A DNA stretch of 63,231 nucleotides, taken from the NCBI GenBank assembly GCA_944358865.1, contig CALVRV010000005.1, forward strand, positions 1 to 63,231. Reading direction: 5' to 3'. The DNA is from an uncultured Bacilli bacterium (GTDB lineage: Bacteria; Bacillota_I; Bacilli_A; RFN20; CAG-826). This document shows positions 28,101 through 47,227 of this stretch, piece by piece. Each line of letters begins with the position of its first letter. Within the stretch, counting starts at the first letter, position 1. Made by a program: the position numbers and the translations under genes. The notes beneath the pieces were generated by a model. The model searched no databases. It was not told the origin of the DNA and saw nothing but the letters and a program-made list of their open reading frames with translations.

Positions 28101-28641
28101 AAATATCGATAATATCTCCACGTATAGCAAATTGCAATGATTGATCAATTTTATTGACAAGATGATATCCACTGGAAATTAAATCTAATCTTAATTTTTC
28201 AATATTTATTTTTTGATTGAGCTTAAACTTAAATATATTTTTTCTAAATATTTCTTTATTTGGTAAATACCTAATCAAAGAAGCAACATTTGTTATAACA
28301 ATATCACATCTTTTTTCTAATATTTGATATAAAGCATAAACTCTTTCACTTGATAGATCTTTACTTTGTGTAAGAGCTTCAACACGAATTAATTCATCAC
28401 CTGGGAACAAAACAATTTTATCTTTATCGCTACTTAAAAATTCTAATAAAAAACTATATAGTTGTTGTGCTTTATATAGATTAGGAACCACTAATAAATA
28501 TTTTTCTTTTTTAATTTTATAAGCAGAGGCAATACAAAAAGCACTTAATAAAACATCTTCAATAATAAATTTGCCGTTATTGTCATTAACTATATTTTTA
28601 ACAACATTATTTTCTTTTAAAAGATCAAATAGATTCTTCAT
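25168..28641 (-). CDS. mfd: transcription-repair coupling factor Mfd
   Basis: CGDVGFGKTE Walker A, DEEQRFG, and TRG-region motifs. I prefer the ATG at 28641. The ORF-track start at 28650 is a GTG. Confidence 0.95.
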   Translation of the reverse strand: MKNLFDLLKENNVVKNIVNDNNGKFIIEDVLLSAFCIASAYKIKKEKYLLVVPNLYKAQQLYSFLLEFLSSDKDKIVLFPGDELIRVEALTQSKDLSSERVYALYQILEKRCDIVITNVASLIRYLPNKEIFRKNIFKFKLNQKINIEKLRLDLISSGYHLVNKIDQSLQFAIRGDIIDIFSLNLDSPVRIELFDNEIESIRFFDIATQLSNKNVEEVIVLPGSDVLFNLEEIKNAPNKLNDKLAKVKPSLSLLNFETLKDNIDEVINKILEFDFDASLYKYFHYLSDKTTNLFDFCQDFKIIYIDKEGNDSQNSLLNFEASEFKKELISQHLALDCVDFYYDLNSVLNFKQHIDIYESPFNVEALNLNGSQVMVLANDEKSICDIIKTFLNRDYTIMIAISSLDKINTLEELLEKENLPYDRFVDFSLPRKNISINVIDLPYGVIFEKEKIVILTAKELFNGKTHSYRYSSRFKEGTILKSYEELQAGDYVVHEFQGIGQFLEISTLEVDGVHKDYLKLQYANEEILYVPLSQFQLVRKYMAREGAKPKLTKLHSSDWEKTKKKIKEKINDLANRLYNLYQERSKIEGFRFYKDDELQQAFENDFPYELTKDQQSSLDEIKKDMESPYPMDRLLCGDVGFGKTEIAFRAAFKAILSGKQVAILCPTTILARQHYQLALSRFSKYDVKIAIFSRLINLSRQKDYIEGVRNGSIHLIIGTHRLLSKDVSFSNLGLLIIDEEQRFGVEQKERLKELKNNVDVLTLSATPIPRTLQISLLGMRSLSLINTPIKDRMPVQTYVLPYKFSVVKELILRELSRQGQVFYLYNRVDKLYEISNRLQKEIPQARIAVGHGQMSKNEIEDVMMKFYNGEIDILVCTTIIENGIDVSNANMIIVQNADTYGLSQLYQIKGRVGRSDRIAYAYLFYNNEKKLTDTAKKRLKAIKEFATLGSGYKIAQRDLLIRGAGDILGPNQAGYIDSIGLDMYIKLLNEAVKNKINPIDEVESKIETKNISIDLNIDAYIDDKYAKEGDKIELYQQIEKCDNLDDLAKLKSDIRDIYGPLPKNVSLLFDKQEIDILVKLSQIDDLKIYKNYYDIILSNKYLQIKGIGNILFELMMPYIKYCRITYQQGVFKINMIKDDDWIVTLKKVLKDLLKIVG

Positions 28642-29200
28642 GATTATCACTATTATATAAAGACATTGCTTTTTTAAAATTTGATTTTAAAATCTCTTTT
28701 AAGGCATTACTTGCTCGATTAATCGCATAATCAATTAATTGTTTTTCTTCATCATAAGGTTTACCTAAGACATGATCTATTCCATCATATTTTGGTTCAC
28801 CAATACCAATTCTAATGCGTTTGATTTGATCGCTTTTTAAAAGGTCGATGATATTTTGCATTCCTTTTTGTCCACCACTTGAGCCAGATTCTCTTAATCG
28901 AATTACACCAGGTGGTAAGGCCATATCATCATAAATAACAACAATATCTTCTAAGCTAATTTTAAAATAATTAACGATTTGAATTACTGCTGTACCACTT
29001 AAATTCATATATGTTGTTGGTTTAAATAAAAAGACGTCTTCATCAAAAATTTTTCCTCTTCCTAGTAAACCATTAAACAATTCTTTATCAACATCTATCT
29101 TAGATATTAAAGAGAAAGCATCAATAACCATGAACCCCATGTTATGACGGGTTCCTTCATATTTTTTCCCAGGATTTCCTAAACCGACAATTAACTTCAT
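28625..29200 (-). CDS. pth: peptidyl-tRNA hydrolase
   Basis: MKLIVGLGNPGKKYEGTRHNMGF. Confidence 0.95.
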   Translation of the reverse strand: MKLIVGLGNPGKKYEGTRHNMGFMVIDAFSLISKIDVDKELFNGLLGRGKIFDEDVFLFKPTTYMNLSGTAVIQIVNYFKISLEDIVVIYDDMALPPGVIRLRESGSSGGQKGMQNIIDLLKSDQIKRIRIGIGEPKYDGIDHVLGKPYDEEKQLIDYAINRASNALKEILKSNFKKAMSLYNSDNHEESI

Positions 29201-29314
29201 AGCCTTAATATTATATCATTTAAATTTTATATATAAATATAAAACATCTAAAAAATGAATTGCTATATAGATAACATTTTATATAATAATTATGCTTTAA
29301 AAAGGAGAAAAAAC

Positions 29315-30586
29315 ATGGAAACAAAATATTATTTAAATCAAACGACAAATTATCAAATTTTTGTAAGAAACCATTCTAAAGAAGGAACCTTTAAAGAAGT
29401 AACAAAAGACTTACCAAGAATAAAAGAATTAGGTGTAGATATGATTCAACTTTTACCTATTCACCCAATTGGAAAAAAGGATAGAAAAGGCACTTATGGA
29501 TCACCTTATTCAGTAAAAGATTATTATAAAATCAGTGACGATTTAGGAACATTAGAAGATTTTAAAGAACTAGTTAAAGAAACACACAAATTAGGAATGA
29601 AAATTATCCTAGATATGGTTTTTAATCATACTGCGAAAGACAGTGTTGTTTTTGATGAACATCCTGAATTTTATTACTATCATGATAATAAACCCGCAAA
29701 CAAACTTGGTGATTGGTCAGATGTTATTGATTTAAGAATGGATTTAATTCCTGTTCAAGACTATTTTATCAATGTTTTAGCGTATTGGCTAAATCTAGGA
29801 GTTGATGGATTTAGATTTGATGTTGCTAGTTTAATTCCAATGACATTTTTTAAACGTGCAAGAGAAAAACTTGGTGAAAAGCCAATATTTTTTGCAGAAT
29901 CTATACATAGAGAATTTACTGATTATATATTAACCACTAATTTTTATGTTACTTTAGATAAAGATTTATACCCTACTTTTGATTCTTCATATAACTATAA
30001 TACTTACACTGCGTTATTTGATTTTTTAAATGGTAAGACAAACTCTATTAAGAAGTACATATCTCAATTATTAGAGCAAGAAAAAACTTTTCCTAAAACT
30101 TATAACAAATCAACAACATTAGAAAATCATGATCAAAAACGTATTGCTGAAGTTTGTAAAAACGAATTAACATTAAAAAATATTGTTGCTTTTTCGTTTA
30201 TAAATAAAGGAATGGCTTTCGTCTATGAAGGCGAAGAATATAAATTAACCCATCAACCTGAATTATTTGAAAAAGATGTTATAGAATTTAAATTGACAGA
30301 TGAGTCTTATTATCAATATATCAAAGATTTAATCGCGCTTAAAAAACATCCGGCCTTTTTACATTATGATAATTTCCTTTATCATGATGGTGATGATTCT
30401 ACAATAGAAATCAGTTTTGATGACATTGATAAAAAATCATTACATGGCTTATTTAACTTAAGTGGAGAAAATCATAAATATCATTTTGAAAATGGCACTT
30501 ATTACGATTTAATATCTAAAACAAATATTGTTGTAACAAACAATCTAATCGAACTAAAAGAACCATTACTTTTAAAAAAGATTTAA
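29315..30586 (+). CDS. cytoplasmic GH13 alpha-amylase-family glycosidase
   Basis: DMVFNHT, GVDGFRFDVA, FFAES and LENHDQ blocks, with no signal peptide. Start moved to the ATG at 29315, which has an AAGGAG RBS. Confidence 0.8.
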   Translation: METKYYLNQTTNYQIFVRNHSKEGTFKEVTKDLPRIKELGVDMIQLLPIHPIGKKDRKGTYGSPYSVKDYYKISDDLGTLEDFKELVKETHKLGMKIILDMVFNHTAKDSVVFDEHPEFYYYHDNKPANKLGDWSDVIDLRMDLIPVQDYFINVLAYWLNLGVDGFRFDVASLIPMTFFKRAREKLGEKPIFFAESIHREFTDYILTTNFYVTLDKDLYPTFDSSYNYNTYTALFDFLNGKTNSIKKYISQLLEQEKTFPKTYNKSTTLENHDQKRIAEVCKNELTLKNIVAFSFINKGMAFVYEGEEYKLTHQPELFEKDVIEFKLTDESYYQYIKDLIALKKHPAFLHYDNFLYHDGDDSTIEISFDDIDKKSLHGLFNLSGENHKYHFENGTYYDLISKTNIVVTNNLIELKEPLLLKKI

Positions 30587-31848
30587 AAATCTTTATCTGT
30601 TTTTAAAACTGCATGAAGCAAAGTGGTCGCTAATTTGTGACAATGATCTAAAGATGTATATTCTTCGTCACAATGTGAACGACCATTTTTTGATGGAGCA
30701 AAAATCATTGTTGTTGGTAACATGTACGAAGCAAATTGTGCATCATGACCTGCACCTGAATTGATAAATTGATTTTTATAACCTAATTCATCAGCGCTAG
30801 ACTTAACAAAATTAACTAATCTAGGATCAAAATAAGTTGTATCGCGCGACCAATTTAATTTAGTTTTAACTAAACAACCATCTAACTTTAATCCATCAAA
30901 AGAATTAATAATGTCGGCAACACGTTTTAATACTACATGATCTATATGACGAACATCTATCATTATTTCTGCATAACTTGGAATGACTGTATGAACATTA
31001 GGTTTTACACATATTTGACCGTTTGTGTAAACCAAATCATCAATTTTTAATTCGTCAATTTTATTGTGTAACTCTACTAATATTTTGCTTAACGTTAATA
31101 GCGCATCTTTACGATATTTCATTGGTGTTGTTCCAGCATGATTTGCTTGGCCTTCAACAATAATAGAATAATTAACCATTCCTAAAACACATCTAACCAC
31201 TCCAATATCATTGCCACTTGTTTCTAATATTGGTCCTTGTTCAATATGAGCTTCAAACATTGCTAAATAATCATGTGGGTTTAATCTATTTTTGTATTCT
31301 CCTTTATATTTAAATTTATCTAAAGCTTCTTTAAAAGTTGTTTTATTTGTTAATATATCTTTACTTGAAAACATTTTATCTTCATCGTAATTACTAGCAA
31401 TATTTTCAGGTAAATATTTTTTACAAAGCATACCAGAAACCATTATTGCAGGTGGATATAAAGATCCTTCCTCATTTGTCCAAATCATCGCTACAACATC
31501 ATGTTTATGTGGAATGTTTTCTTTTTTAATTGTTTCTAATACTTCCATCGCGCATATAACACCAAGTATTCCATCATAATTTCCACCATTTAAAACTGAA
31601 TCACAATGAGATGCCATGACTATTTTCTTATGTAAAGAATCGCTCCCTTTTAAAATAGCATACATATTTGCATAGTCATCAAAAACTACTTCAGCACCAA
31701 TACTTTCCATTCTAGTTTTAAAATATGTTCTTGCTAATTCATCTTCTTTAGATAAAGCATACCTAGTAATTCCACCATTTTTATCATCACCAAATGTTGA
31801 AAAAGTTTTGATTTTATCTTCAATTCTATTAATATCACACTTAATCAT
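30583..31848 (-). CDS. M20-family amidohydrolase (N-carbamoyl-amino-acid / allantoate / beta-ureidopropionate hydrolase type)
   Basis: SHCDSVLNGGNYDGILGV metal-binding block. 421 aa. Confidence 0.8.
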   Translation of the reverse strand: MIKCDINRIEDKIKTFSTFGDDKNGGITRYALSKEDELARTYFKTRMESIGAEVVFDDYANMYAILKGSDSLHKKIVMASHCDSVLNGGNYDGILGVICAMEVLETIKKENIPHKHDVVAMIWTNEEGSLYPPAIMVSGMLCKKYLPENIASNYDEDKMFSSKDILTNKTTFKEALDKFKYKGEYKNRLNPHDYLAMFEAHIEQGPILETSGNDIGVVRCVLGMVNYSIIVEGQANHAGTTPMKYRKDALLTLSKILVELHNKIDELKIDDLVYTNGQICVKPNVHTVIPSYAEIMIDVRHIDHVVLKRVADIINSFDGLKLDGCLVKTKLNWSRDTTYFDPRLVNFVKSSADELGYKNQFINSGAGHDAQFASYMLPTTMIFAPSKNGRSHCDEEYTSLDHCHKLATTLLHAVLKTDKDF

Positions 31849-31850
31849 AA

Positions 31851-33209
31851 TTAGCCTCTTTTGATATATTTACCAAAACCAATTTTTGCAAGTGGTGTAT
31901 TATTTTTTAATAAAAATTCGCCTCGTAAAATAACAGTTTCAATTTTACCGCTATACTCATAACCTTCCCAAATTGAATAATCGGATTTTGAAAAAGACAT
32001 TTCTTCTTTATTAAAAACATATTTATTTCTTGGATTATAAATGACAATATCCGCGTCATTATTAACTTTTATTTCACCTTTAAAAAGAATATTAAATATC
32101 TTTGCAGGATTATAGGAAACAAGTCTTGCAGCGTCAAGATATGAGATAACACCACGATTAGCTTTATCTAGCATATAAGGATATAAATTTTCTATACCAT
32201 CACAACCATTTGGAGTTTTTCTAAAATCATTTATTCCCCATAATTTTTCTTTTAATAAAAATGGGCAATGATCAGTTGCAACAACATCAATTGTTTTATC
32301 ATAGATTGCATCCCAAAGTGCAAGTTGGCTTTCTTTATTTTTGATTGCTGGTGAACAAACATAATTTTGTGAATCTTCTTTTTTATAAACATCGCTTGTA
32401 AAATTTAAATATTGTGGACATGTTTCAGCATAGACAATTTGACCTTGTTCTTTTGCTTTACGTATTGCGTTAATTCCATCTTTACAGGCGTTATGAACTA
32501 TATATATTGGAGCGTCAGCCTCTTTTGCAATTTTTAATGCTTTTAATACTCCTTCATATTCAACTTGCTCATCTCTAGATAAATAATGATAATAATTATT
32601 TAATTTATTTTCTTTAACAAAAGTTTCAATGTTTTTATCTATTTCATCTACATTTTCTGCGTGAATATTTACTAAAAGATTGCAAGTCTTGGCTTTTTTT
32701 AAAATTTTTAATAAATTATCATCACTTATCATCATGTTTTCTTTTTTATAGACCATAAAACATTTAAAAGATGATATTCCAAGATCTTTTGCACTTTCCA
32801 TTTCTTTTAAAATATCATTATCAGCCCGTGTTAAAGCAATATGAAAACCATAATCCGTATAAGAATTTTTACTTAATTGTAATTTCTTATCTAATAATTC
32901 TTTAAACGTTTTTTCTTTTTTCATTATGGCATAATCTAAATATGTTGTTATTCCATTTATCGCACCGGCAAGAGATCCTGATACATAATCATCGCTTGAA
33001 TATGTACCACCAAAATCCATATGAAAATGAGTGTGAACATCAATGCCACCAGGTAAAACATATTTACCTCTTGCATTAATATATTTATAATCTTTGGTTT
33101 GCTTGATATCTTTTCCTATCTCAACAATTTTTTCACCATCAATTACAATATCTAAAACTTCTATTTTGTCATTTAAAACAACGTTCCCGTTTTTAATTAA
33201 TATTTTCAT
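31851..33209 (-). CDS. dihydropyrimidinase / D-hydantoinase
   Basis: GGIDVHTHF, SSFKCFM (carboxylated-Lys block), and VATDHCPF. Confidence 0.85.
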   Translation of the reverse strand: MKILIKNGNVVLNDKIEVLDIVIDGEKIVEIGKDIKQTKDYKYINARGKYVLPGGIDVHTHFHMDFGGTYSSDDYVSGSLAGAINGITTYLDYAIMKKEKTFKELLDKKLQLSKNSYTDYGFHIALTRADNDILKEMESAKDLGISSFKCFMVYKKENMMISDDNLLKILKKAKTCNLLVNIHAENVDEIDKNIETFVKENKLNNYYHYLSRDEQVEYEGVLKALKIAKEADAPIYIVHNACKDGINAIRKAKEQGQIVYAETCPQYLNFTSDVYKKEDSQNYVCSPAIKNKESQLALWDAIYDKTIDVVATDHCPFLLKEKLWGINDFRKTPNGCDGIENLYPYMLDKANRGVISYLDAARLVSYNPAKIFNILFKGEIKVNNDADIVIYNPRNKYVFNKEEMSFSKSDYSIWEGYEYSGKIETVILRGEFLLKNNTPLAKIGFGKYIKRG

Positions 33210-33227
33210 ATGTTTTATCCTTTTTTA

Positions 33228-33605
33228 TTATTTGTTATTTTTTATAATTAAATCCGCTGTTGCTTTATTTGTTGCAATTGGAATATCATAAACAACCGCA
33301 ATTCTTAATAAAGCCTTAACATCAGGATCATGAGGTTGAGCTTCTAATGGATCCCAAAAGAATATAACCATATCAATTTCTTTTTCAGCAATATGAGCCC
33401 CTATTTGTTGATCGCCACCTAGTGGTCCACTTAAATAGGCTTTAACAGTTAGCCCTGTAGCCCTACTTATCAGATTAGCGGTATGACCTGTTCCACATAA
33501 ATTAAAATCTTTTAAAATTTCTTTGTTTTTTAATGCCCACACTACTATTTCTTCTTTTTTATGATCGTGAGCTATCAATGCAATTGTTTTCTTTTTAGTT
33601 TTCAT
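33228..33605 (-). CDS. mgsA: methylglyoxal synthase
   Basis: [10 protein letters not shown]...GGDQQIGA...DPL..QPHDPDV. Confidence 0.9.
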
Positions 33606-33960: not shown

Positions 33961-34134
33961 TTCTTTTAAAATAGGTAACCTTTTTATTCAAAAAATACTT
34001 AAGAAAAAGTTTTTTAAAAACAATGGTAGACTAACTACAAAAATTTGTAAAAATAAAATTTAAAAAAGTCCCAATGTATCTAAGAAAATATACTTTTTCT
34101 TTTATTTTTTGTCAAAGATGGGTTGTTAAATCTT

Positions 34135-34167
34135 CTTTCTCTTTGATTTGCAAGAGAGAAAGTTTTC
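34135..34167 (+). terminator. hairpin plus T-run
   Basis: CTTTCTCT-12 nt-AGAGAAAG followed by TTTT, located between the IS remnant and the end of the BREX operon. Confidence 0.3.
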
Positions 34168-34235
34168 ATTGTATGGCCTAATTGGCATTAACAAACGATA
34201 ACTGTTTATAATAAAATATTCATTTTCTTCGTTTG

Positions 34236-34952
34236 TCATAATCCTTTGGTTAAAAAATAAACTATAAGACCACTAGCGACAGCAGAAACAATGCCCACAA
34301 TTATAGGAACTATAATCTGCCACAAAATTTTGTTTTCTTTCTTTGGTATCGTAAATGTTTTGCCATTAACAATGATGGCATCATATATCTCTTTGTTCAA
34401 ATTTTTAATTGATTGCCCGTTTTTCTTGATATCAAGATTATCGAGGTCAACTCCTGCATCTTCAAACGAACAAATTAAATTAATAACTCTTGTTTTCACA
34501 GCAGCGTAAACCCTGGAATAAAACTCTGGGTTAATAAGTTGCTTAATTGATGTACATTGGATTCCGTCTGTGTTTTTATATATTTCTGATGCAAGAACAG
34601 TTAAATCCCTATACATTTGCTGTTTTTCATCTTTTTTCTTTTCGACATCGTAAATATTTTCAAAAATACCAATACTTTCAACTTGTTTTAAGGTATTTTC
34701 GCTTAAATATCCAGCTTGAATTGGTGTGTTTGTTATTTGCAACATTCCAGCTAAGCCCGAATAAATTATGTTCCTAGACGAATATTTTCTATATGAAGGC
34801 AACGTATTGAAGCCTTGATATCCATTCAATTCATTCATGCACCAAGCAGATAAATCGCTATTATTCGTTTTCTTTGAAATGATTAAAAGCCTTTCCAAGC
34901 ACTCAGAAAGCTTAATTAATCCACTTGTTAATTCGTTTAGTATTTTGGACAT
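34236..34952 (-). CDS. AbiTii-like protein with C-terminal TM anchor, coupled to brxL
   Basis: The ATG at 34952 lies 1 nt after the brxL TAA. The ORF-track start at 34961 is a TTG that overlaps brxL. The motif W-CMN-ELNGY-x9-YRK is as I remember it for the AbiTii family. C-terminal helix ILWQIIVPIIVGIVSAVASGLIVYFLT. Confidence 0.5.
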   Translation of the reverse strand: MSKILNELTSGLIKLSECLERLLIISKKTNNSDLSAWCMNELNGYQGFNTLPSYRKYSSRNIIYSGLAGMLQITNTPIQAGYLSENTLKQVESIGIFENIYDVEKKKDEKQQMYRDLTVLASEIYKNTDGIQCTSIKQLINPEFYSRVYAAVKTRVINLICSFEDAGVDLDNLDIKKNGQSIKNLNKEIYDAIIVNGKTFTIPKKENKILWQIIVPIIVGIVSAVASGLIVYFLTKGL

Positions 34953-34953
34953 A

Positions 34954-36972
34954 TTATTCAATACCTAAGGCCTTAATAGCAGCATCCTCTGGAGATGTAT
35001 AGAAGCTTGTTTGGAACTTGGCAAATAATTCGCTTGGAACGGTCGCTATATCCACTGCGTTACTCATCGGTAAAAGAATCTTCTTAGCTCCTGCATCAAA
35101 ACAAACTTGTAGGGAATCCGCTAAATTATCAACTTTACTGATTGTACCACCAATAGTCATAGAGCCAAGAACCATCATTTGAGATGATAATGATCTACCT
35201 AAAGCAGCACTGATATACGAAATATAAACAGCTAAACTAATTGATGAATCAATACCAATTCCATGACAATCTTCGACATGCATCAAATAATCCTTTTGTT
35301 CTAAGGAGATGGTTTGACTAATATGTTTAGCATTGGCTTTGAAATAGTTTTGAGCAGTTTTCACTGATTCTTTTAATTCTTTAGAATTGCTTAAACCTGT
35401 AACTTCAAATTTGCCACCACCTTTTTCATTTAATGAACATTCGATTCTAGCAACTCCAATTGTGGTTGCACTACTGCAAGTCGTATAAATCGTTCCAGCT
35501 GGTGAATTGCCTTCTGGAATTAATTTGCCACCGCCTTGTTCTTTAACAGATACGAACTTCTCTTCCATTGTTTCTAAATCGATGTATGAGAATTGTGTGT
35601 CATAGAATTCCATGCCACCTAATTTCTTAAGCTGTTCTTTGACTCTTCTTCTACCCTCTAATGCATAGACAAGGATTTCTTCAATATCTTCTTTAGAATA
35701 ATTTTCATCTGGATAAAGGAGTTTACACATAGCAGAAACCATCTTATTGACCGCCATAGTATCTCTTTGGTTAAGACATCTGCCTAATTTGAAGAATCTA
35801 TGGTAGCAATCAGCGTCGCTTCTTTTTCTCATTTCTCTGAGGAATTCAGCGAAATAATCAGAAATAAAGCCCCAATTATCAGTGAAATATTCTGGTCTTA
35901 ATTTAGGAACTTCCCATCCTGGTAAATAGAAATGCATTCTATCTAAGAAAGCAGTATCAATCATCGCTTCTGGAAATGGTTCAAACAGTGTTGATGTTTT
36001 TAATAATGATTCAACGCTTTGGTTAATATTTCCTTCAAAAACCATAGAGGCCTTAGCAATGATGGATTCCTTGCCTCTAACAAACGATCCACTATTCATG
36101 TAGTCTTTCATGATTTGGATACCATCTTTATCTTTAAAGTTAATACCTGCAACTTCATCAAAAGCTACAACATCCCACATACCAACTAAACCAACAGTTT
36201 TTCTTCCCATGTTGTAGAAAAGATTGGCCACTGTGGTCTGTCCGCCGGAAAGAAGGATGGAGTTTGGCGACAATTCTTTATAAATATGTGATTTTCCAGT
36301 ACTTCTAGGACCCAATTCACATAAATTCATATTAGATTCTATCATCGGTGCAATTCGAGCCAAGAGATGCCATTTTACGCGTTTATCAAAATAAGCTGGC
36401 TCCATGCCACAGCTTCTAATAATCAAATCAATCCATTCTTCTTTAGCAAAGTCTTTTCTAGCTTCGATAATTTCATTCAAATCAAAGCCAGGCATTTGGA
36501 TTGGAGTAATGTCGTCGATATGGAACGCTCCACCATCATCATCGTTATATTTATATGAAAGTTGAATAATGCACCAAATACCATCACTCAATAATCTTTC
36601 GTTATCTTTAATGTAATGGTCATCGATAATATCGCTGATACCCATGTTATGAAGATTGCCGTAATAGACGTTATGTCTTTCATCAAATCTGGCATCAACA
36701 ACATCAATAACGTTGTATGTTTCATTATCTCTGATTCTTGATTTAATCAAATTGACTTCATCGTTTCTGACATAGTTCTCGGCTAAAATCTTTTTAACTT
36801 GCTCGATGCCTTTATCAATTTCTTTTTCATCATCAGAGGAACAATAAGTGCCTAAAAGATATTCCAAAACATATGTTGGAACATTGGATACACCTTTAAT
36901 CAATTTGGTTGCACCTTTTTTAACTACTCGCCCAGCAAATGATTCATAAGCTTTTCTATCTAAATCATCCAT
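34954..36972 (-). CDS. brxL: BREX Lon-like protease BrxL
   Basis: 672 aa. Walker A GPRSTGKSH, a Lon-protease-like C-terminal domain, and the last position of a type 1 BREX operon. AGGAGG RBS. Confidence 0.85.
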   Translation of the reverse strand: MDDLDRKAYESFAGRVVKKGATKLIKGVSNVPTYVLEYLLGTYCSSDDEKEIDKGIEQVKKILAENYVRNDEVNLIKSRIRDNETYNVIDVVDARFDERHNVYYGNLHNMGISDIIDDHYIKDNERLLSDGIWCIIQLSYKYNDDDGGAFHIDDITPIQMPGFDLNEIIEARKDFAKEEWIDLIIRSCGMEPAYFDKRVKWHLLARIAPMIESNMNLCELGPRSTGKSHIYKELSPNSILLSGGQTTVANLFYNMGRKTVGLVGMWDVVAFDEVAGINFKDKDGIQIMKDYMNSGSFVRGKESIIAKASMVFEGNINQSVESLLKTSTLFEPFPEAMIDTAFLDRMHFYLPGWEVPKLRPEYFTDNWGFISDYFAEFLREMRKRSDADCYHRFFKLGRCLNQRDTMAVNKMVSAMCKLLYPDENYSKEDIEEILVYALEGRRRVKEQLKKLGGMEFYDTQFSYIDLETMEEKFVSVKEQGGGKLIPEGNSPAGTIYTTCSSATTIGVARIECSLNEKGGGKFEVTGLSNSKELKESVKTAQNYFKANAKHISQTISLEQKDYLMHVEDCHGIGIDSSISLAVYISYISAALGRSLSSQMMVLGSMTIGGTISKVDNLADSLQVCFDAGAKKILLPMSNAVDIATVPSELFAKFQTSFYTSPEDAAIKALGIE

Positions 36973-36986
36973 AAAATTTATTCCTC

Positions 36987-39506
36987 CTAGAACATCTTGA
37001 AGCCAATGATATCGATGATAAATTGAATTTCTTCAATGGTTTCTCCGCTGTCGTTATCTTCTATTACAAGGTAATATCTCTTGTTTCTATCGTAAGTTTG
37101 ATTCTTTAGCAAGAATCTCATATCAATAATTCTTTCAGCTGGATCATCTGTTGATTTATTAGCAATAAGAATCTTCTTTTCACTGATTTCGTTGTGTTCG
37201 TCATCAACAAAATAAACCATCAATGTTGCAGGCGTTTTCTTACCATCAACTTTTTCCATCTGCTCAAATTGAAGTGAGAAAGATTTATTCATAATCTTGT
37301 GAGTTGAAGTTTTAAGTCTAACCTTGACTGGTTCTGCAACCTTATCTAAAGCTTTACTTCTCATTTCAGAAAGTGTGATGATTGGTGTGACTAATTCTTG
37401 TAACGAGGCACCACCATGGATGTATTGAATACCACCACCAGCTTTTCTAAATAAATCATAAGAATATGGGGAATATACTTTTTGATGGTAACTACCTAAA
37501 TACTCCAGATCAAATGTATTGGTATCGGTTAAATCTAAGTTGTTATCAACAACTGCATATCTTTGTGAATAATCATCAAGGCCTAAGCCTGCAAATGAAT
37601 TATATTTGCTAGATGCATCAATCTTCTTATTTCTATAAATGAATCCATGATCGCTTGTGACCATGTAATTTGAAATTTGAAGAGTGTTATATAACTTTCT
37701 GATTAAATCAATAATTTCTTTAATGGCAGTATTGCATGCTTCGAATACATCTGTATCGTGTTCACCAGCATTATCAATTGTATTGTGAAAGATATAAACA
37801 AGGGACTTATCATCCATATAACGACGAAGTGTTTCTTTGTTCATCTTAATAATATCTACATATTGAATAGCAGCATATGATTGCGATCTTGATTTAAGAA
37901 TCTTGTCTCTATTATCAGTTCCGCTACTTGGCTTTCCATCTACAAAGACTTGTTTGTTTTCGTAAGATATGATTTCGTTTGGAAGAAGTGAGGCCATACC
38001 AAACGTGGTAATGGATGGAAGAGTTGTAACTTGATATTCAAGTTTAGCTAAACCATTAAACTTATCAGCGCGATTAAGTTGTCTTACTAATTCCGCACCA
38101 ACCTCGTATCTAAGAGCGTCAGAAACGATAATAAATTGCTTCTTAGCAAGTCTCTTTATTCTGTTCTTAAAGAAATATTTAGATAATTCAACAGAACCAA
38201 ATGAATAATGTGGTTCAATTGTTTTTAGACTACTGGAGAATGTTCCACCCAATTTGGATAAGAATTTATTTTCATAAGTGTTATCCACAACATTAACCAA
38301 CGCCATCTGATTGTCATCCGGTTCAACGATTTTGGAATAAGCGTTGATGGCGTGTCTATAATTGCTATCCACCTCATAATAACTTTCGCAATATTTGGAA
38401 ATATAATCGGAAGGTGTTAATCCTTGTTCAATGGATATATCCGCTGTTTTCTTTAATTGAATGGCGTATTTTAAGAAATCATATTGGTTCTCGAATTCGC
38501 TATACCACTCTGTTGTTAAACGATAATCATTAATGACTTTAAGATAGAAATCAAAATCATATGATCCACTAACTAATGAATTAGTTATTGTTTTGATAAT
38601 GTGCCTATCAAAGTCCTTGAATTCATCGCTAAAGGCGAGAGTATCAATTCCTCTAGATTTAATAATTTCTTTAATTCTTAATTTCTTTGAATATTCCTCT
38701 TGGAGTCCATCATAACGTTTATCTTTCTTTAATATTGCATTTACAAAGTAAAGAATAGATTCGGGGGAATCTTTGATAATTAATTTATTCCATAGAGGAC
38801 TATCAATCTTAAAGTTTTTATTTTGAGTAACTGAGGTCATTAAGAAGGATCTAATTAATGTATCAACGTTTTCTTCACCGCTATAGAAGAATTGTTCTGA
38901 CACCATTGTCCAGAATTCATTCTTAAAATTGAATTTTTCTAATTCTTTATATTTCTTGCCAGTTTCAACATCAAAGATGACTTCTAATAAGATGTGGTCA
39001 ATCTTCGGATAATCAGCTTTCACTAAAGAAGCCATCATATTAAGTTCCAATTCGGCTGGTTGGATTGAATCATTAATAGGATATTTCTTAGTTAAATCCC
39101 CAACTCTTTGTTTACTTTCAAAGAACGATAAATGTCTTTGGATAACTTCTCTAAGTTTAGATGTTTCTAACCCTAGATTTCTCATTGTTAAAGCAACAAC
39201 GTCAGCGTAATATTCTTCGCTATATAAAAGAGTGTCTAACAGCCAATTCTCAACATCAGATGGTCTTTTACATGGAAAATAAATAAGATAATTTGATGTT
39301 TTATCTTCGATTTCTAATAAAGTTTTAATTGAGAATGGGTTGTTTTCATAGATGATGACTTTAGCATTATCAAACGAATCATTTTTAATCTCTTCTATGA
39401 ATGTTTGCATTTCATCATACCAAAAGATTATATGTCGAAAATCAGATGGCTTATTAAACATCTTTATAAGTTGCAACTTAGCTTCTTGATAACTACTGTC
39501 GTTCAT
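36987..39506 (-). CDS. pglZ: BREX alkaline-phosphatase-family protein PglZ
   Basis: 839 aa. PglZ-type core (SDALRYEVG...TSDHGF). Lies between pglX and brxL. Confidence 0.85.
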   Translation of the reverse strand: MNDSSYQEAKLQLIKMFNKPSDFRHIIFWYDEMQTFIEEIKNDSFDNAKVIIYENNPFSIKTLLEIEDKTSNYLIYFPCKRPSDVENWLLDTLLYSEEYYADVVALTMRNLGLETSKLREVIQRHLSFFESKQRVGDLTKKYPINDSIQPAELELNMMASLVKADYPKIDHILLEVIFDVETGKKYKELEKFNFKNEFWTMVSEQFFYSGEENVDTLIRSFLMTSVTQNKNFKIDSPLWNKLIIKDSPESILYFVNAILKKDKRYDGLQEEYSKKLRIKEIIKSRGIDTLAFSDEFKDFDRHIIKTITNSLVSGSYDFDFYLKVINDYRLTTEWYSEFENQYDFLKYAIQLKKTADISIEQGLTPSDYISKYCESYYEVDSNYRHAINAYSKIVEPDDNQMALVNVVDNTYENKFLSKLGGTFSSSLKTIEPHYSFGSVELSKYFFKNRIKRLAKKQFIIVSDALRYEVGAELVRQLNRADKFNGLAKLEYQVTTLPSITTFGMASLLPNEIISYENKQVFVDGKPSSGTDNRDKILKSRSQSYAAIQYVDIIKMNKETLRRYMDDKSLVYIFHNTIDNAGEHDTDVFEACNTAIKEIIDLIRKLYNTLQISNYMVTSDHGFIYRNKKIDASSKYNSFAGLGLDDYSQRYAVVDNNLDLTDTNTFDLEYLGSYHQKVYSPYSYDLFRKAGGGIQYIHGGASLQELVTPIITLSEMRSKALDKVAEPVKVRLKTSTHKIMNKSFSLQFEQMEKVDGKKTPATLMVYFVDDEHNEISEKKILIANKSTDDPAERIIDMRFLLKNQTYDRNKRYYLVIEDNDSGETIEEIQFIIDIIGFKMF

Positions 39507-39515: not shown

Positions 39516-42500
39516 CTATTTCTTCTTCTCCAGACCAAATGGCACAAGTAAATCTTTTTTGATAGTTGCGCCATTGACTTGGATGGATATTCCTTGGAAT
39601 TTAACATAATTGACCTTAACACCATCATCTAAATCGATATCGATATATTGGTTAGCCATATGGTCTAAGACTTGGCCATAGATTTGGAGTTCTTCTTCTG
39701 CTAATTCGATTTTGGATAACTGGTTTTCAATCTTCTTTCTTTGAGCAATGTCCGCTCTAGTAAGCTGGTCAGTTAATCTTTCTCTTTCGGTCTTATACAT
39801 CGCTGTTCTTGGTAGGAAGTACTTAGCATTAATTTTTGCTAATGTATTTTTGTCATAACGATGCAAATAGACTAAGCATTTGAAAGCACCTTGTTTGCCA
39901 CTACTAAACATCCAATAGATTGGTCTATTTTGATATACCTTCAAATGGTCTTTATAAAATTCATCATTAAGGTATCTATTGATAGCTTCTTCGGCACCTT
40001 CGTCAGTTTTCCTTCCTAAAGCATCCGCGATGAAATTAAGATTATCACGATAATATTTATCACCATAAACACGTTTTACTAATTTGCATATTGATTGTGT
40101 TAAACCATCATTAATTCCTATAAATGGATAAATCGGAAGAATTCCATCTTCATCTACATAATTCCTATATTTGGTTGGATCAAATTGTCCGCCAGCGTAA
40201 ATCAGCCCTTCTTGTTCAAGAGAATAACGTCCCATTAAACAGCCAATAAAATAAGATATTAGCGATTTAATTGAGGTTGATGTATCAACTTTTCTGATAG
40301 AAACATTTTTGTCCAAAACTGAAGAGTCGACTTCATCAGACAAACCATACATTTCAGCTACGATGGCATTTATTCTCTCTTCATTATTTTTCATCTTGGA
40401 AAACATTGTTTCTGTTTTGTTTTTCCATACAACAAAAGCATCTGATATCTTCGAATTGCTAAGCGAAACAAGCGGATGAACAAAGAAATCCCATGAATCT
40501 TCATAACTGTCCCATTCATCTTTAGATATATCTATATTGGACTGTGCCAATTCTCTAATTTCGTCCTCTCTATCATAAATAATTGGTAACGCAGCAATTT
40601 GACCAACTTCATAATTTAATGTTGGGGCGGTTGCTTTTAAAATCGTTTGAATAACATTCGAATTAACAACACCGATTAAATAAATGAGGTTTTCATGGCT
40701 TCCAAAAATGCTACAACCAGCAACATCAAAAACATGTCCAAATGGTTTATAGCGAAAAGCGATATTACCCGAGGAGATTTTTGACCAAGAAATCGACTCG
40801 ATTAAGTATTGCGCAGAGTTCTGGAAGCGTGATCCGTAACTCTGCGCAATCGCCTTGCCAAAATCCTTAAAATACACAACACAATCATTATTTCCATACC
40901 ATTTTCTAAATAATCCACCTTTGTTATACGGAACAAATTTTTTGTTTGCTTTTATGCTTTCGTCTCTTGATTTGCTATTCAAATATTCATCAGTATATGA
41001 TGGTTCCCACCAATAGCGGACAAACTTTCCGTTATCGCCGGTTTGCAAGCCGACGCAAGGCATGGCAACCGGCGATAACGCAGGCGCTGTCGCCAAAACG
41101 TTTATTAATTTATCACTTATCCAATAAGAAATTGTTTGAGCAGGAATAGATAGTAAACTTCTATTTCGTTTCACATAGACATAATCACAATCACAATTAT
41201 TCACCGCTTCTAAAAATTTCTGATTCTGAACAGCCATACCACCTTTAAATTCTGTCAATCTGAAGTAAGTTCCATTGAAATTTAATTCACTATTACGACA
41301 TATAAATGTACATAACGGGACAATGGCTTCTTCAAGAGCCGAATATTCTAACTGAGCAAGAGTCACAATATGTTTATCACACAATATGTAGTCTCTTAAA
41401 TCATTGTATGATTTAATAAACATCCATACATATGGTGTCATAAAAGCAGTGAATCCGTTTTCTTTTGTTATTTCGAAAGAATGCCAAATAAACATGGAAA
41501 ACATATCTGATTTTGCACTTAAGTAATTCTTGTTCGCATATTTTTTCATTAAATCTTCGAGATTGTTTAAATTGACATATGGAGGGTTGGTGATCATCGC
41601 ATCATACTTTCTAGCCAACACTCTTGCTACGCGTGCCAAATATCTAAGTCTTCTTAAACCTTGATTGTAGAAATCTTGTTCAAACAAACCAGGATTCTCT
41701 GTTTCTTTACATCTCTTGATGTCATCAATTAAAGGTGTATAATCTTTTCCAACTACTTTAAGTAATGAACCAATGACCTTTCCATGTTCAAATGTATTAA
41801 CTAAATATTCAGCTAATTCGATTGATTTAGCGGAGAAATGCAATGATTTCATTGCTTCTTTATAATTCAAAGCAATTAACAATTGACTATCTTTAATTTC
41901 ATAGACTCTTGGGTTAACAAATCTATCTTCGTTGAAGAATCTGTTATCAATTGATCTTGCTTTCATAATCAAAGAGAATTTGGCTAATTGAGCCGCTCTC
42001 TTATCAACATCAAGACCGTATAAGTTGTTCTTTAAAATTAATCCAGGGATGTCACGTTTGTTGTATCCTTTTTCTAAGTACATATTTAAAAGTAAATCAA
42101 AGACATAAACCAAGATATGACCACTACCACAGCATGGTTCAATTACTTTAATTTCTTCTGGGCTAACATTCTTATATTTAATTTCGTCTAATTTCTTTTG
42201 AGTTTCTTCATCTTGTTTAGCGTCATCAACATAATATTTGAGTGATTGTTTTAAAGATGAATTAGGATACGATTCAAGCCACAATCTGCCAACTGAGTTA
42301 TCAGCCATATATCTGACAATCCAGTCAGGAGTAAATAATTGGGTAACAGCTGGTAATGTATCTTTAGTAATTGTTTCTTTAGATGCAAAAACCTCATCTT
42401 TTTTAACTGAATTATAGAATTGATATAACCACCCAACCACTTCAACATCATTCATGAAGTCTTCTTCTGGGATTAATTCAATTTTTCTAATGACTGAATC

Positions 42501-43067
42501 CTGAGATAAAAGATTGTTTGGTAATAAAAGCTCTAGATATGATTCTGTTCCATCAAAGATGTCTGGAATAATTTTGCTTAAAGCAGAACATTGTTTAACA
42601 AAAACATATCTATAGAGTTCTTCTGTTTTGTTTTGATCTTTTAACAAACGAACGATATCTTCTTCTAACTTTAATTCGTTAGCGACATAAGAGAGGTTGG
42701 AAAGAATCTCTGGTTCATAGGAGCCGTCTCTACTCGTTAAAACGCGGAAACCATGTGAAAAATAATCATGGACTTCCATAAATCTAATGGCCACAATTCT
42801 GTTGAACCATGTATAAGCAAATTCTTCAACCACAGTTTCAAACTTTTCACCATTTTCAAAATGCTGACTTAACATGATTTTTCTTAAGCCATGAACACGT
42901 TTTGGCAATGAATCTGGATTGCCTTCGATGATTGTATAATCACCAACCACATTAGACTTTAATATTCTATCTTTATAGATACCTAATTTATTAAGGCCTA
43001 AAGCGATTTGGGTTTCTAATTCTTTTCTCGCAAATAATGCGTAATCAAGTAGAGCTTTTTTGTTCAT
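39516..43067 (-). CDS. pglX: BREX N6-adenine DNA methyltransferase PglX
   Basis: 1183 aa. SAM-binding block EPCCGSGHIL and catalytic block ITNPPYV. Confidence 0.9.
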   Translation of the reverse strand: MNKKALLDYALFARKELETQIALGLNKLGIYKDRILKSNVVGDYTIIEGNPDSLPKRVHGLRKIMLSQHFENGEKFETVVEEFAYTWFNRIVAIRFMEVHDYFSHGFRVLTSRDGSYEPEILSNLSYVANELKLEEDIVRLLKDQNKTEELYRYVFVKQCSALSKIIPDIFDGTESYLELLLPNNLLSQDSVIRKIELIPEEDFMNDVEVVGWLYQFYNSVKKDEVFASKETITKDTLPAVTQLFTPDWIVRYMADNSVGRLWLESYPNSSLKQSLKYYVDDAKQDEETQKKLDEIKYKNVSPEEIKVIEPCCGSGHILVYVFDLLLNMYLEKGYNKRDIPGLILKNNLYGLDVDKRAAQLAKFSLIMKARSIDNRFFNEDRFVNPRVYEIKDSQLLIALNYKEAMKSLHFSAKSIELAEYLVNTFEHGKVIGSLLKVVGKDYTPLIDDIKRCKETENPGLFEQDFYNQGLRRLRYLARVARVLARKYDAMITNPPYVNLNNLEDLMKKYANKNYLSAKSDMFSMFIWHSFEITKENGFTAFMTPYVWMFIKSYNDLRDYILCDKHIVTLAQLEYSALEEAIVPLCTFICRNSELNFNGTYFRLTEFKGGMAVQNQKFLEAVNNCDCDYVYVKRNRSLLSIPAQTISYWISDKLINVLATAPALSPVAMPCVGLQTGDNGKFVRYWWEPSYTDEYLNSKSRDESIKANKKFVPYNKGGLFRKWYGNNDCVVYFKDFGKAIAQSYGSRFQNSAQYLIESISWSKISSGNIAFRYKPFGHVFDVAGCSIFGSHENLIYLIGVVNSNVIQTILKATAPTLNYEVGQIAALPIIYDREDEIRELAQSNIDISKDEWDSYEDSWDFFVHPLVSLSNSKISDAFVVWKNKTETMFSKMKNNEERINAIVAEMYGLSDEVDSSVLDKNVSIRKVDTSTSIKSLISYFIGCLMGRYSLEQEGLIYAGGQFDPTKYRNYVDEDGILPIYPFIGINDGLTQSICKLVKRVYGDKYYRDNLNFIADALGRKTDEGAEEAINRYLNDEFYKDHLKVYQNRPIYWMFSSGKQGAFKCLVYLHRYDKNTLAKINAKYFLPRTAMYKTERERLTDQLTRADIAQRKKIENQLSKIELAEEELQIYGQVLDHMANQYIDIDLDDGVKVNYVKFQGISIQVNGATIKKDLLVPFGLEKKK
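40808..40850. repeat. perfect 13-bp inverted repeat inside pglX
   Basis: ATTGCGCAGAGTT at 40808-40820 and AACTCTGCGCAAT at 40838-40850, with a 17-nt spacer. Confidence 0.9.
41030..41080. repeat. perfect 14-bp GC-rich inverted repeat inside pglX
   Basis: CGTTATCGCCGGTT at 41030-41043 and AACCGGCGATAACG at 41067-41080, with a 23-nt spacer. Confidence 0.9.
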
Positions 43068-43078: not shown

Positions 43079-46000
43079 CTAGTCAATGTCGATTTCGTCG
43101 TTATTATCTAACAATCCTTCTAATGTGTTTTTAATGTTATCTAAAAGACGTCTAACATCTTCTTGAGATTTAATCTTTCTATTAGCAACAGGAATCAAAT
43201 TAGAGGCTCTGATACTAGTTCTTCTAACTTTTGGTTGAGGTTGACCACCTTGACCATCTTCTCTAATGATTTTTGCTAATTCGCTTCTAAATGTATCGAT
43301 TTCAAGTTTTGCTCTGCTCTTAGCGGAAGAAATCTTTTCAAATGAATCTAGAGTGCCTAACAATCTATCAAATACTTCTTTTTCATCTTCATATAATTTA
43401 TCAATCTTGCCTCTTGTTTCTTCTTTTTGGAATGATTGAGTGAGTGTTTCATTATATTCTCTAGTGATGGCATATAATGACTTATTGATATCTTTCTTAG
43501 CAACATCAGCATTGGCTTTTAATAATTCGCTCTGCTTATTATTAGCATCCGCTACTAATTGAGCAAGTTTAGGCATCATATTAAATGGTTCAGCCATGGC
43601 TAAGATATCGCTAATATCTTTGATAATTTCTGATAATGCACCTAATTCAGGAACAAATAAGATGTTATCTTCGTAATATTTGCAAAGTCTTTTAGCGGCT
43701 TGCCATGTTTTGAGTTGAGAACCATTCTCGCTATGGAAGTTAATAATCATATCCAATTTATCGCCACATTCGATTAAGTCATTTTCTCTAGAGATAATCT
43801 TATCAAACACGGTCTCAGAATCAGATGAAGCTGTAATTGTGGAGAAAATAGAAAGCATCTTATCCACTAATTCTTTGCCAGGATACATTCCACTATTTCT
43901 ATAGCTGATTTGTCTTAATGATTCTAATTTGCCTTTAAAGAAATATAGAGATTGGTCACGTAATTCGACTTCTTTAAGTTCAATTGTTAAGTCAAATGCA
44001 TCCTTCATGATGCGTTTCACTTTATTAAGTTTTTGTGGATCAATTTCAGTTTGAATTTCCACTACCATTCTTTCATCTTGGCTTCCTCTAGAGAATTCCC
44101 AGACAAAGTTTTGACTATTGATAGCTTGTAATTGGTCAGCAACTTTAATTTTTAATTTATTGTTAACTAATAAGAACGCAACAACACATCTTACATCAAT
44201 GGGTCTAAAGCCATAAGGTGCTTTACCAAACTTAGTTATAAGAGATGACATAGTGACTCTTCTACCCCAGTTCTTTTCGTCCTTAACAAAGTTATAGATT
44301 TCTTTAGAAGCTAAGTTATTGATATCAGCTCCTGAATCAAAAGCATCAACACCCATGCCTAAAGGTACTTCTCTTAAAGTTGCAGAAACATCATCGTTTT
44401 TAGTAGCAAATGATTTAATATATCCAATTTTGTTATATTTACTTGTAACGACTCTTTCTAAACCTTCAGAGATTCTTTTTTTTGGATCATTAGAAGTGAA
44501 TGTCAATTGTGTACCGTTTTGATAAATTGGGCATTCTTTTAAACATGAGACAATATTCTTTTCAGCACGTTTAACAGCTTCATCAGCTTCCGCTCTCTTC
44601 TTGGCTAAAATGTCAATCATCGTAGAATCAGCGCCAGAAGCATTGTTTCTATCATAAGTTTGAATTCTATTAGCTTGGATTAATTCTTCTAGATATTGGC
44701 CGTTTGTTAAATCAATGACCAATGCATCGGATGACATAGAAACAACAGCCATATCGCTTACATCGTTTTTAGACCATGGTGTAAAGATTTTAATTGACAA
44801 GTTATCTGGCGATTCGGTGCCTTGGATATTGTTATCAATGAATCTATTTAAGCCAAATTGATATTTGCCATAAATGAATTTATTTCCAATGGCGGCAACA
44901 TTATCAAAGATAATATTTCTAACCTGTGTAAGAACTTCCGCTGTTGAATAAGTGGCTTTTTTAATGTCTCTATTAACATCTTGTTCTTTATTGGTTAAGA
45001 ATTCATATCTTTCACCATTGCGTTGCGCTAATGTTTCATCAACCAATCTATCTAATGATTCTTTAATTCTATCTTTAAGGACTTTTTTGTCTTGTTTAAT
45101 ATCAGAAACCATTAAAGTAGCAATTCTTTCAAGAGTTGGCTCCATTTCTTTGACGTTTTTTAGCATGAATAAAACTTTCAAAACTTCTAAGTCGAATGGA
45201 TTATCCGATCTTTTAGAAGCACGGGCAAAAATCTGTTTAATGTCGTGGTCCATGAATTCTTCGATGGTTTCATAAAAAGCGTTAAATGGTATTAATAATC
45301 CGTCTGGTTTATCTGCTCTTAAAACAGCACTCTTTTGGAAAGCGTTCATCAAGCTTCTTTCACCAGAAGAGATATGTTTGCCTTCTGACATACCACTTTC
45401 TCTAATAGCAGTGAATGTCATTTGCAATAATTCAAATTGATAATTAACGAATGGATAGCAATCCACGAATTGTGTTTCATCTTGATATCCAGTCCATTTT
45501 GGTTTTTGTGGGAACATCAATAGATTATTTAATCTATCTTTATTTTGTTGGAACAATGTGCCTAAATAGTTTCTAGCATCATCTGTTTTATCCAATAATC
45601 TCTTTTTAATAACTTCATCGGCGTTGCTAGATGACATCATTAATCTAGTGGCGAAACGTCCTTGAATCTTGGAGAAATCCATTTGAGCGTTTCTATTAGC
45701 GCCATCAATAAGGTCTTTAATTTCTTGTTGAGATGTGACAGCAATCCACGCTTTGCCTTTACAGGCTTTCCCTAATTCTTCTTCAACCGTCTGTAAACCA
45801 AGCATTAATTCACCACGCGAACCAATAAATTGACCAACTTCGTCAATTAAGAAAATAACGCGTCTACCAGTTTTATTAATGTATTCACTAATGATTCTAG
45901 AGAATTCTTCAATGGACAACGAGAAATTGTTTTGAGCGTCTTTAATATATGCAAGAGCAGAATCTTTTGTAATATCTTTTAATTCAGAAAGAATATTAGC

Positions 46001-46624: not shown

Positions 46625-47227
46625 CTACTTACCAATCCTTTCTTCGAGTGGGAACGCTCTATAATAATTGTCATCTTCTAATTTATCAAATAACCTTAGA
46701 CACATCGTGTGACTTAAGTCATATCTCCCTGGATACATCATCACAACCGGATTTTTTTTGATTATTGGTTGCAATTTATTAAGTATTGTGTGGCTCCTAA
46801 TTATTGGATAAGCCTTGCCAACACCAGTAATGAGAATGATGTGATTTCCATCATCAATAACGTTATCCTTCATATATTGCATAACAGGATTGTTATCTTC
46901 TTCTAGAGCCAAGAATGGTTTAAAGAGTTGATTGAGAAGGATTTCGTTATCATATTGCTTCTCATATTCCTTGACAGTATCGATATATCCTTCGTGTGTC
47001 AGAAGTTCCACTACCACATCGAACAAATCTATTTCTTGAATATTTGGATTATTCTTTTTAAGCTTTTCAATTTCATCTCTAACTTTTAATTCATCCTTAG
47101 GATCATAATCGAAGATGAAGAATGGAAGTTCGTTGGCTTTACCTTTTTCTAATAAGATACGTGCGTCTGCTAATTGTTTTTCAATTTCCACGAATCGAGT
47201 AGTAAGTGATCTTTCGTTTTCCATCAT
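46625..47227 (-). CDS. brxB: BREX protein BrxB (DUF1788-like)
   Basis: 200 aa. Second gene of the operon, with an ATGA overlap with brxA. Confidence 0.7.
   Translation of the reverse strand: MMENERSLTTRFVEIEKQLADARILLEKGKANELPFFIFDYDPKDELKVRDEIEKLKKNNPNIQEIDLFDVVVELLTHEGYIDTVKEYEKQYDNEILLNQLFKPFLALEEDNNPVMQYMKDNVIDDGNHIILITGVGKAYPIIRSHTILNKLQPIIKKNPVVMMYPGRYDLSHTMCLRLFDKLEDDNYYRAFPLEERIGK

Follow-up and report, generated by a model that had tools for sequence, protein, structure and literature searches.

A tail-anchored AbiTii protein encoded behind brxL: a putative abortive-infection module on the tail of a type 1 BREX operon

Given that brxL is the last canonical gene of a type 1 BREX (bacteriophage exclusion) operon, we wondered what role a further gene might play when it begins a single nucleotide (nt) behind the brxL stop codon, and whether it is a part of BREX, the remaining half of a two-gene module, or an independent defence gene carried on the tail of the operon. 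The case comes from a stretch of 63,231 nt from an uncultured Bacilli bacterium (contig CALVRV010000005.1), the whole of which we refer to as the window and to whose positions all unprefixed coordinates refer. The gene, here called the AbiTii-TM gene, is an open reading frame (ORF) at 34236-34952 on the minus strand and encodes a protein of 238 amino acids (aa) with a PF18864 (AbiTii) domain and a C-terminal transmembrane (TM) helix. With moderate confidence, we read it as an autonomous, single-gene, tail-anchored AbiTii module of the abortive-infection type that is the last cistron of the BREX transcript and whose helix is a putative membrane effector. Established, and the starting point of this reading, are that the protein belongs to the AbiTii family and has the TM helix, that the gene lies at the tail of the operon and is under purifying selection, and that it recurs behind unrelated defence operons, exchanged independently of brxL.

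The assignment to the AbiTii family, proposed from the letters alone in an earlier note on this DNA, is borne out by the Pfam AbiTii profile, which matches residues 2-184 over profile positions 4-185 of 189 (E = 5.6e-21; 76 bits, cut-off 27.6), and by the AbiTii model of PADLOC (E = 1e-22). The family signature given there is also real, but its spacing needs correcting: the protein reads LSAW-x3-ELNGY-x8-YRK, not x9. Across 70 aligned relatives, residues W37, E41, L42, G44, Y45, P52, Y54 and R55 are invariant, and E41 is probably the “highly conserved glutamate” in the definition of the AbiTii domain (PMC3710099). Behind the domain (aa 1-165/184) come a Lys-rich linker at 166-207 (7 Lys in 42 residues), the motif KKENKxxW, a TM segment at about 213-233 and a 5-aa tail, so that both the linker and the single C-terminal helix are found as described. 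Hydropathy (Kyte-Doolittle, 19 residues) reaches its maximum of 2.71 at 213-231 and has no second hydrophobic peak, and in the AlphaFold2 (AF2) model (pLDDT 86, pTM 0.75) an alpha+beta domain that extends to about residue 165 is joined by a linker of lower confidence to a helix at 208-237. By the hydropathy profile there is no signal peptide and no other TM segment, and the basic stretch KKENK lies directly N-terminal of the TM segment, a layout that fits a single-pass tail anchor with a predicted cytoplasmic N-terminal domain (N-in). The Foldseek search that the note had proposed turned up no structural relative of the AF2 model, with nothing below E 0.5 in PDB or BFVD, and the predicted AbiTii fold gives no clue to function; lactococcal AbiTii is likewise without a structural match according to a 2026 review (PMC13064643).

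A database search with the window protein returned 74 proteins, every one of which carries PF18864. About 40 of these, from gut metagenomes and metagenome-assembled genomes of uncultured Bacilli, are full-length (233-248 aa, 47-84% identity) and have the same TM tail; farther relatives of 205-226 aa are soluble and lack it. When 1.84 billion cluster representatives were searched with a profile, 5207 AbiTii proteins emerged at E ≤ 1e-3; the best 150 50%-identity clusters provided 148 scored representatives, of which 31 (21%) have a C-terminal TM segment, most of these segments opening with the same [ILV][ILV]P[ILV][ILV]. W211 and P216 are invariant in 41 homologues, K208 is conserved in 95% and G228 in 83%; the TM segment is as conserved as the N-terminal domain, and the linker is variable. 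Such conservation of the helix would seem to exceed the need of a passive anchor. Instead of the TM segment, other AbiTii proteins carry a C-terminal CAP12/Pycsar-type TIR domain, an N-terminal TIR_2 domain or a DUF4145/HEPN domain, the AbiTii-HEPN fusions being on record (PMC3710099), from which we infer that the helix may occupy the slot held elsewhere by an effector. A tblastn search of a phage collection gave no match, and three queries against a plasmid collection gave no TM-tailed AbiTii; the plasmid-borne AbiTii proteins, found in Enterococcus and Lactococcus in restriction-modification (RM) or TIR contexts, are only soluble or longer ones. Homologue loci on other contigs are numbered L001-L042, and coordinates prefixed with such a number are positions within that locus. 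On an E. faecium plasmid (NZ_CP142416.1; L027 4992-6189), the gene of a soluble 208-aa AbiTii overlaps a 192-aa ORF in the company of RM and DUF262 genes, and an L. lactis plasmid (NZ_CP042409.1; L026 3992-4891) encodes a 299-aa AbiTii with a C-terminal extension, adjoined by a divergent TIR-domain gene.

At the junction with brxL (34952-34956, minus strand), the TAA of brxL occupies 34956-34954, one base follows, and 34952 is the first base of the AbiTii-TM ATG, as had been claimed for this ORF. An alternative TTG start at 34961 gives an ORF of 34236-34961; because all homologues begin with MSKIL at the ATG position, we take the ATG as the start and the protein to be 238 aa long. The sole sequence before the ATG that resembles a Shine-Dalgarno (SD) sequence is AGGT, 11 nt upstream. 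The junctions of L034 and L019, which form clade A with the window, are like this one (1-2 nt), whereas clade B relatives have gaps of 11-14 nt with proper SD sequences (AGGTGA or AGGAGG). Because of the 1-nt gap and the lone AGGT, unlike the SD sequences of clade B, translation by termination-reinitiation from the BREX mRNA is probable, and the BREX operon is presumably the source of the transcript. The statement that no promoter fits holds for the 1-nt gap, but a promoter inside brxL is possible: a weak 9/12 match lies at 35168-35141, in a region whose promoter matches are no more numerous than in shuffled sequence. As a terminator, a hairpin at 34135-34162 is no better than shuffled sequence (z -1.07) and has no U-tail on the minus strand.

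Whether the gene belongs to BREX can be judged from its other surroundings. About 16 distinct contexts were available, 15 of them with a known upstream gene, on metagenomic contigs of related gut Bacilli that are not phylogenetically independent; the scan with the narrow alignment A2 yielded only 4 genome and 7 metagenome loci. The commonest upstream neighbour is brxL (7 of 15 contexts), and one further context keeps a brxL remnant. An identical protein follows brxL in all 11 of the contigs examined that carry it (6 places shown). The gene begins 1 nt after brxL in the window and in L034/36/37, whose brxL is 97% identical to that of the window, 11 nt after it in L006, 13 nt in L038-40 and 14 nt in L002, where the start is TTG. 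In L003/L005 and L020/21, a 183-aa ORF with a zinc ribbon stands between the two genes, and the AbiTii-TM gene follows it at 11 nt in L005 and L020; this ORF (9438-9989 in L003, L005, L020 and L021) carries a topoisomerase-type C4 zinc ribbon (PF01396) and belongs to one BREX lineage. Outside BREX, the gene lies 30 nt after the DruE gene of a type I Druantia (L001/12/13; PADLOC 1692 bits) and 26 nt after the specificity subunit of a type I RM-like operon (L042); it also heads a cluster of two unknown proteins, a Dcm methylase and a HATPase_c_3 protein within polysaccharide loci (L014-16, L022-24), stands alone upstream of GmrSD (L025) or next to Schlafen, DUF2357 or HNH genes (L017/18, L004), and is pseudogenised downstream of a GmrSD gene in L008-11. 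The contig of L041 ends before the upstream region. As a rule, the gene points the same way as a larger defence operon and starts 1-41 nt behind the stop codon of that operon's final gene.

The neighbourhood comparison called for in the earlier note is therefore divided in its outcome: the gene recurs behind brxL, but it also occurs where there is no BREX. It has the marks of an operon-linked BREX accessory in lying on the same strand, adjacent to a core gene and recurrently so across several BREX lineages. As a core component of type 1 BREX it does not qualify: it occurs without BREX, it diverges from brxL in its history (below), and it goes unmentioned in the text and accessible supplements of a 2026 BREX survey (PMC12839542). 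Since it is also found after DruE, after an RM specificity gene, heading the Dcm/HATPase cluster, alone, and where BREX has been deleted, the suggestion of a BREX component is not supported, and we regard the gene as autonomous and, judging from these arrangements, as a mobile add-on to several unrelated defence operons. The cluster headed by the AbiTii-TM gene is a conserved set of five genes (L014 10748-15514, L022 10750-15042), the others encoding a 206-213-aa protein, a 235-242-aa protein with a weak Abi_2/AbiD (HEPN-like) match, the Dcm-type methylase and the HATPase_c_3 protein, and may be an unnamed defence system.

The history of the gene differs from that of brxL. When the window is aligned with L034, 82-94% of the nucleotides agree within brxL and 70-82% from the AbiTii-TM start codon onward, and synonymous divergence (dS, Nei-Gojobori) is 0.68 for brxL against about 3.4, a saturated value, for the AbiTii-TM gene, which therefore points to an allele from a more distant lineage, brought in by cassette exchange at the junction. 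The ratio of nonsynonymous to synonymous divergence (dN/dS) in this pair is about 0.03 for both genes, with a range of about 0.03-0.09 for the AbiTii-TM gene; these values are approximate in view of the saturated dS, but ratios so low argue that the gene is under purifying selection and hence functional. The BREX-linked copies split into two clades with 53-58% identity between them, while their brxL genes are 85% identical, and the homology of L005 and L008 begins 44 nt ahead of the start codon and continues from there, with unrelated sequence upstream. In L019, where the AbiTii-TM copy is 82% identical, the ORF upstream of it is a chimera that retains the last 39 codons of brxL, which we read as the scar of a deletion or recombination by which BREX was lost and the AbiTii-TM gene kept. 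These breakpoints and divergences indicate that the gene has been exchanged independently of brxL. The chimeric ORF (L019 9501-9998) encodes 165 aa, of which residues 127-165 are the BrxL C-terminus and residues 1-127 resemble part of a 326-aa protein encoded downstream of AbiTii-TM in L005 and L008. Broken alleles also occur: a single TTA-to-TGA change separates the nonsense allele of L003 from the intact one of L005, and the copies in L008-11 have a frameshift and a stop codon. The reading of TGA as Gly (genetic code 25) was rejected for the stop in L008-L011, as the long ORFs around it are uninterrupted under code 11 and the copies are frameshifted as well. Broken alleles in near-identical loci would possibly fit a costly, toxic gene.

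Downstream, the view that the gene has no partner holds for AbiTi, for which the PADLOC scan of the neighbouring proteins, made outside the 37-codon stub described here, gave no match, but not for its immediate neighbour. A stub ORF of 37 codons (34126-34239, minus strand) starts with an ATG that overlaps the AbiTii-TM stop codon by 4 nt (ATGA), and 16 of 36 residues are identical to the N-terminus of a 368-aa protein of L034 (E = 4e-7). In L034/36/37 and L019, the AbiTii-TM stop codon overlaps, again by 4 nt, the start of an intact DUF2971 gene of 345-368 aa (PDC-S31 in PADLOC), of which the stub is the remnant. Nucleotide homology between the window and L034 (blastn) stops at 34211, and what follows the DUF2971 gene in L034, a 188-aa protein and a NERD nuclease, is absent from the window, where an MGS-like gene lies beyond the stub. 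By this comparison, the window locus is the trimmed form of a tail that was longer and had several Abi-type genes stacked in it. The DUF2971 domain is that of Aristaios, an antiphage system of Lactococcus made up of one gene (PMC11381338); its predicted activity is that of a DarT-like ADP-ribosyltransferase (PMC12522546). In the other clades, the AbiTii-TM gene is followed by Cyclophil_like2, 206-213-aa proteins, Schlafen or GmrSD genes, or by none.

How might such a protein work? Produced from the final cistron of the BREX mRNA, AbiTii-TM would expose its AbiTii domain (aa 1-165) to the cytoplasm as a putative sensor or adaptor, comparable to that of relatives fused to TIR or HEPN effectors, and its C-terminal helix, in which a Trp and a Pro are invariant and a Gly is highly conserved, and which has small residues besides, would be the candidate effector. 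A phage cue might then lead to oligomerisation and to permeabilisation or depolarisation of the membrane, so that an infection that BREX failed to stop would be aborted. The link to BREX would be genetic and regulatory, through the shared transcript and the shared island, and not physical. As for the trigger, phages escape lactococcal AbiT by mutations in the major capsid protein and in early genes (PMC13064643), which, by analogy, hint at its kind. The earlier hypothesis of a second-layer abortive effector is thereby kept as the best reading, but in altered form: the non-BREX contexts and the independent exchange speak for an autonomous module that is not wired to BREX.

Several points weigh against this reading. 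Lactococcal AbiTii requires its partner AbiTi (PMC13064643). The “sensor” is inferred from architecture alone, as there is no solved or viral structural relative. One TM helix is the minimum for a pore-former, and most known TM effectors of defence systems have at least two. The approximate dN/dS values and the relatedness of the contigs behind the context counts also weaken it. The clade A gene (window, L034, L019), moreover, always precedes a DUF2971 gene or its stub with the 4-nt overlap, and AbiTii-TM and DUF2971 might work as a pair. In that event, AbiTii-TM would be one half of a two-gene module, its sensor or anchor, and the coupled DUF2971 protein the effector, which has been deleted in the window, leaving an orphan with little or no activity of its own. 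The overlap, present in L034/36/37 and L019 whether BREX is intact or deleted and retained in the window together with the first 36 codons, is what such a module would look like, and lactococcal AbiT has two genes (PMC13064643). We nevertheless consider it rather unlikely: the DUF2971 protein Aristaios protects against phage alone (PMC11381338), and PADLOC places DUF2971 in its PDC-S31 candidate family; other clades have different downstream neighbours or none; and the window protein is intact, with the same sequence in every contig carrying it that was examined.

The context of the gene also invites the idea of a guard, in which AbiTii would sense anti-restriction factors such as DNA mimics or enzymes that deplete S-adenosylmethionine and the TM tail would kill the cell, in the way that PARIS responds to Ocr. 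The tail position behind BREX, RM and Druantia operons would thereby be explained, and the idea fits the upstream neighbours (BREX, an RM-like operon, Druantia, GmrSD) and the concept of backup effectors beside BREX, which is established for nucleases (PMC12839542). Some contexts, however, are not modification systems, islands cluster defence genes anyway, and AbiT escape mutations lie in capsid and early genes, not in anti-restriction genes (PMC13064643), so that we hold the guard to be improbable. A shade more credence, though still little, goes to the broader conjecture that TM-tailed AbiTii proteins are a widespread class of single-gene operon-tail guards, attached to modification-based or large innate systems (BREX, RM, Druantia) and swapped as allelic 3'-junction cassettes, that would kill through a single helix when the counter-defence of a phage bypasses or inhibits the upstream system. 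It is very doubtful that the gene is a passenger without a defence role, a membrane protein or addiction-type gene hitch-hiking at the operon ends of mobile islands: the promiscuous contexts and pseudogenised copies would suit such a gene, but all identifiable neighbours are defence genes, the founder of the family is a proven Abi component (PMC13064643), AbiTii is fused to TIR and HEPN domains, and purifying selection is strong. Least probable of all, in our judgement, is that the gene serves BREX specifically, as an accessory that tethers BrxL or the BREX complex to the membrane or regulates it there, a role that the earlier note had also entertained. The 1-nt coupling to brxL and the frequency of brxL as upstream neighbour, in two divergent allele clades, favour it; yet the gene exists without BREX after Druantia, after RM operons and alone, and was retained in L019 after BREX had gone, the dS values and the homology breakpoints at or just before the gene start show no co-evolution with brxL, the 183-aa Zn-ribbon gene intervenes in L003, L005 and L020, and most type 1 BREX loci lack the gene, which the survey does not mention in its text and accessible supplements.

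The closest known relative of the autonomous module proposed here is lactococcal AbiT, which consists of AbiTi and AbiTii, is encoded on plasmid pED1 and was reportedly described by Bouchard et al. in 2002. The window protein shares with it the N-terminal ~180 aa within PF18864, the W-x3-ELNGY...YR motif, a defence context and a low-GC Firmicutes host; unlike the two-gene AbiT operon, the window locus has no AbiTi gene, and its AbiTii gene sits on the tail of another system's operon. The conserved C-terminal TM helix sets the window protein apart from the soluble 205-226-aa relatives, a contrast that is drawn with these and not with lactococcal AbiTii itself. In AbiT, phage DNA replication and capsid production are blocked and the infected cells die (PMC13064643). 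As in AbiTii-HEPN proteins (c2405, Ymh; Anantharaman et al. 2013, PMC3710099) and in AbiTii-TIR proteins, an AbiTii domain at the N-terminus is combined with a variable C-terminal module in the manner of sensor and effector, but here the module is one TM helix and no enzyme. A TM segment in the TIR slot of sister proteins also recalls Pycsar PycTM, CBASS Cap14/Cap15, Thoeris type II and single-helix toxins or holins, and the CAP12/Pycsar-type TIR of the sister proteins suggests, by analogy, membrane disruption as the output of the helix. The TM effectors of Pycsar, CBASS and Thoeris have two to four TM helices, against one in AbiTii-TM, and no cyclic-nucleotide sensor domain or cyclase lies near the AbiTii-TM gene. 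With the BREX backup effectors (BrxU/GmrSD, PARIS-like OLD-TOPRIM, HEPN, Schlafen and PIN proteins; PMC12839542), it has in common that a second, probably abortive gene lies beside or inside the operon, and relatives of the window locus likewise carry NERD, DUF2971, GmrSD and Schlafen genes. The backup effectors catalogued beside BREX in that survey are all of the nuclease type, whereas AbiTii-TM is no nuclease and is not restricted to BREX.

The AbiTii domain, its HEPN fusions and backup abortive effectors beside BREX are already known. What appears to be undescribed is the TM-tailed architecture, the operon-tail habit and the allelic exchange at the brxL junction: the combination of AbiTii with a single TM helix is not described in the literature searched, despite its presence in about a fifth of the scored representatives; AbiTii beside BREX is not mentioned in the text and accessible supplements of the 2026 survey (PMC12839542), in agreement with the earlier statement that no AbiTii protein has been described as a BREX component; and no paper was found that ties AbiT to BREX mechanistically. 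The effector step of BREX and its fallback layers are still debated, and the locus adds a non-nuclease, membrane-anchored candidate beside BREX, in the form of a cassette that is exchanged at the brxL 3' junction and stacked with other Abi modules of one gene each (DUF2971/Aristaios, NERD). For the AbiTii domain, which is poorly understood, this means a simple architecture, a putative sensor plus one TM helix, found in about a fifth of its closest relatives; from it one could learn what the domain senses. Even if the protein should prove inactive by itself, the locus would remain a record of how passengers are gained and lost at the tail end of defence operons.

The operon to which the gene is attached is a complete type 1 BREX operon on the minus strand, with strong Pfam and PADLOC matches for all six genes: brxA (47224-47823), brxB (46625-47227), brxC (43079-46621), pglX (39516-43067; a single intact gene of 1183 aa), pglZ (36987-39506) and brxL (34954-36972; Pfam BrxL_N, BrxL_ATPase and Lon_C; PADLOC BrxL, 1015 bits). 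Its genes have a GC content of 32-36%, the AbiTii-TM gene one of 31.7% and the flanks one of 23-27%; the genome as a whole, at about 25-28%, is below the BREX island. On one side, the island is bordered by a polysaccharide-biosynthesis cluster (47824-52472; Bac_transf, UDP-glucose dehydrogenase, epimerase), and on the other by housekeeping genes (28000-33605; MGS-like, amidohydrolase, M20 peptidase); polysaccharide loci also host the AbiTii-TM relatives in L014 and L022. The sole Rfam match in the whole window, a transfer-messenger RNA at 8887-9252 on the minus strand (RF00023, 130.8 bits), indicates a chromosomal context, and Rfam detected no element near the AbiTii-TM gene or in the 630-nt spacer downstream of it. 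This AT-rich spacer (23.5% GC), left by the deletion, contains at 34087-34115 on the minus strand a near-consensus sigma-70-type promoter (TTGACA-17-TATATT, 11/12), about 480 nt upstream of the MGS-like gene. In related BREX loci, partial C-terminal copies of pglX, spanning residues of about 640-867 and 641-1180, follow pglX itself (L002 226-5385, L003/L005 536-4837, L020 547-4846), and in L020 pglX is in pieces, with ORFs of 621, 243, 241 and 315 aa, an arrangement that looks like target-recognition-domain shuffling or phase variation.

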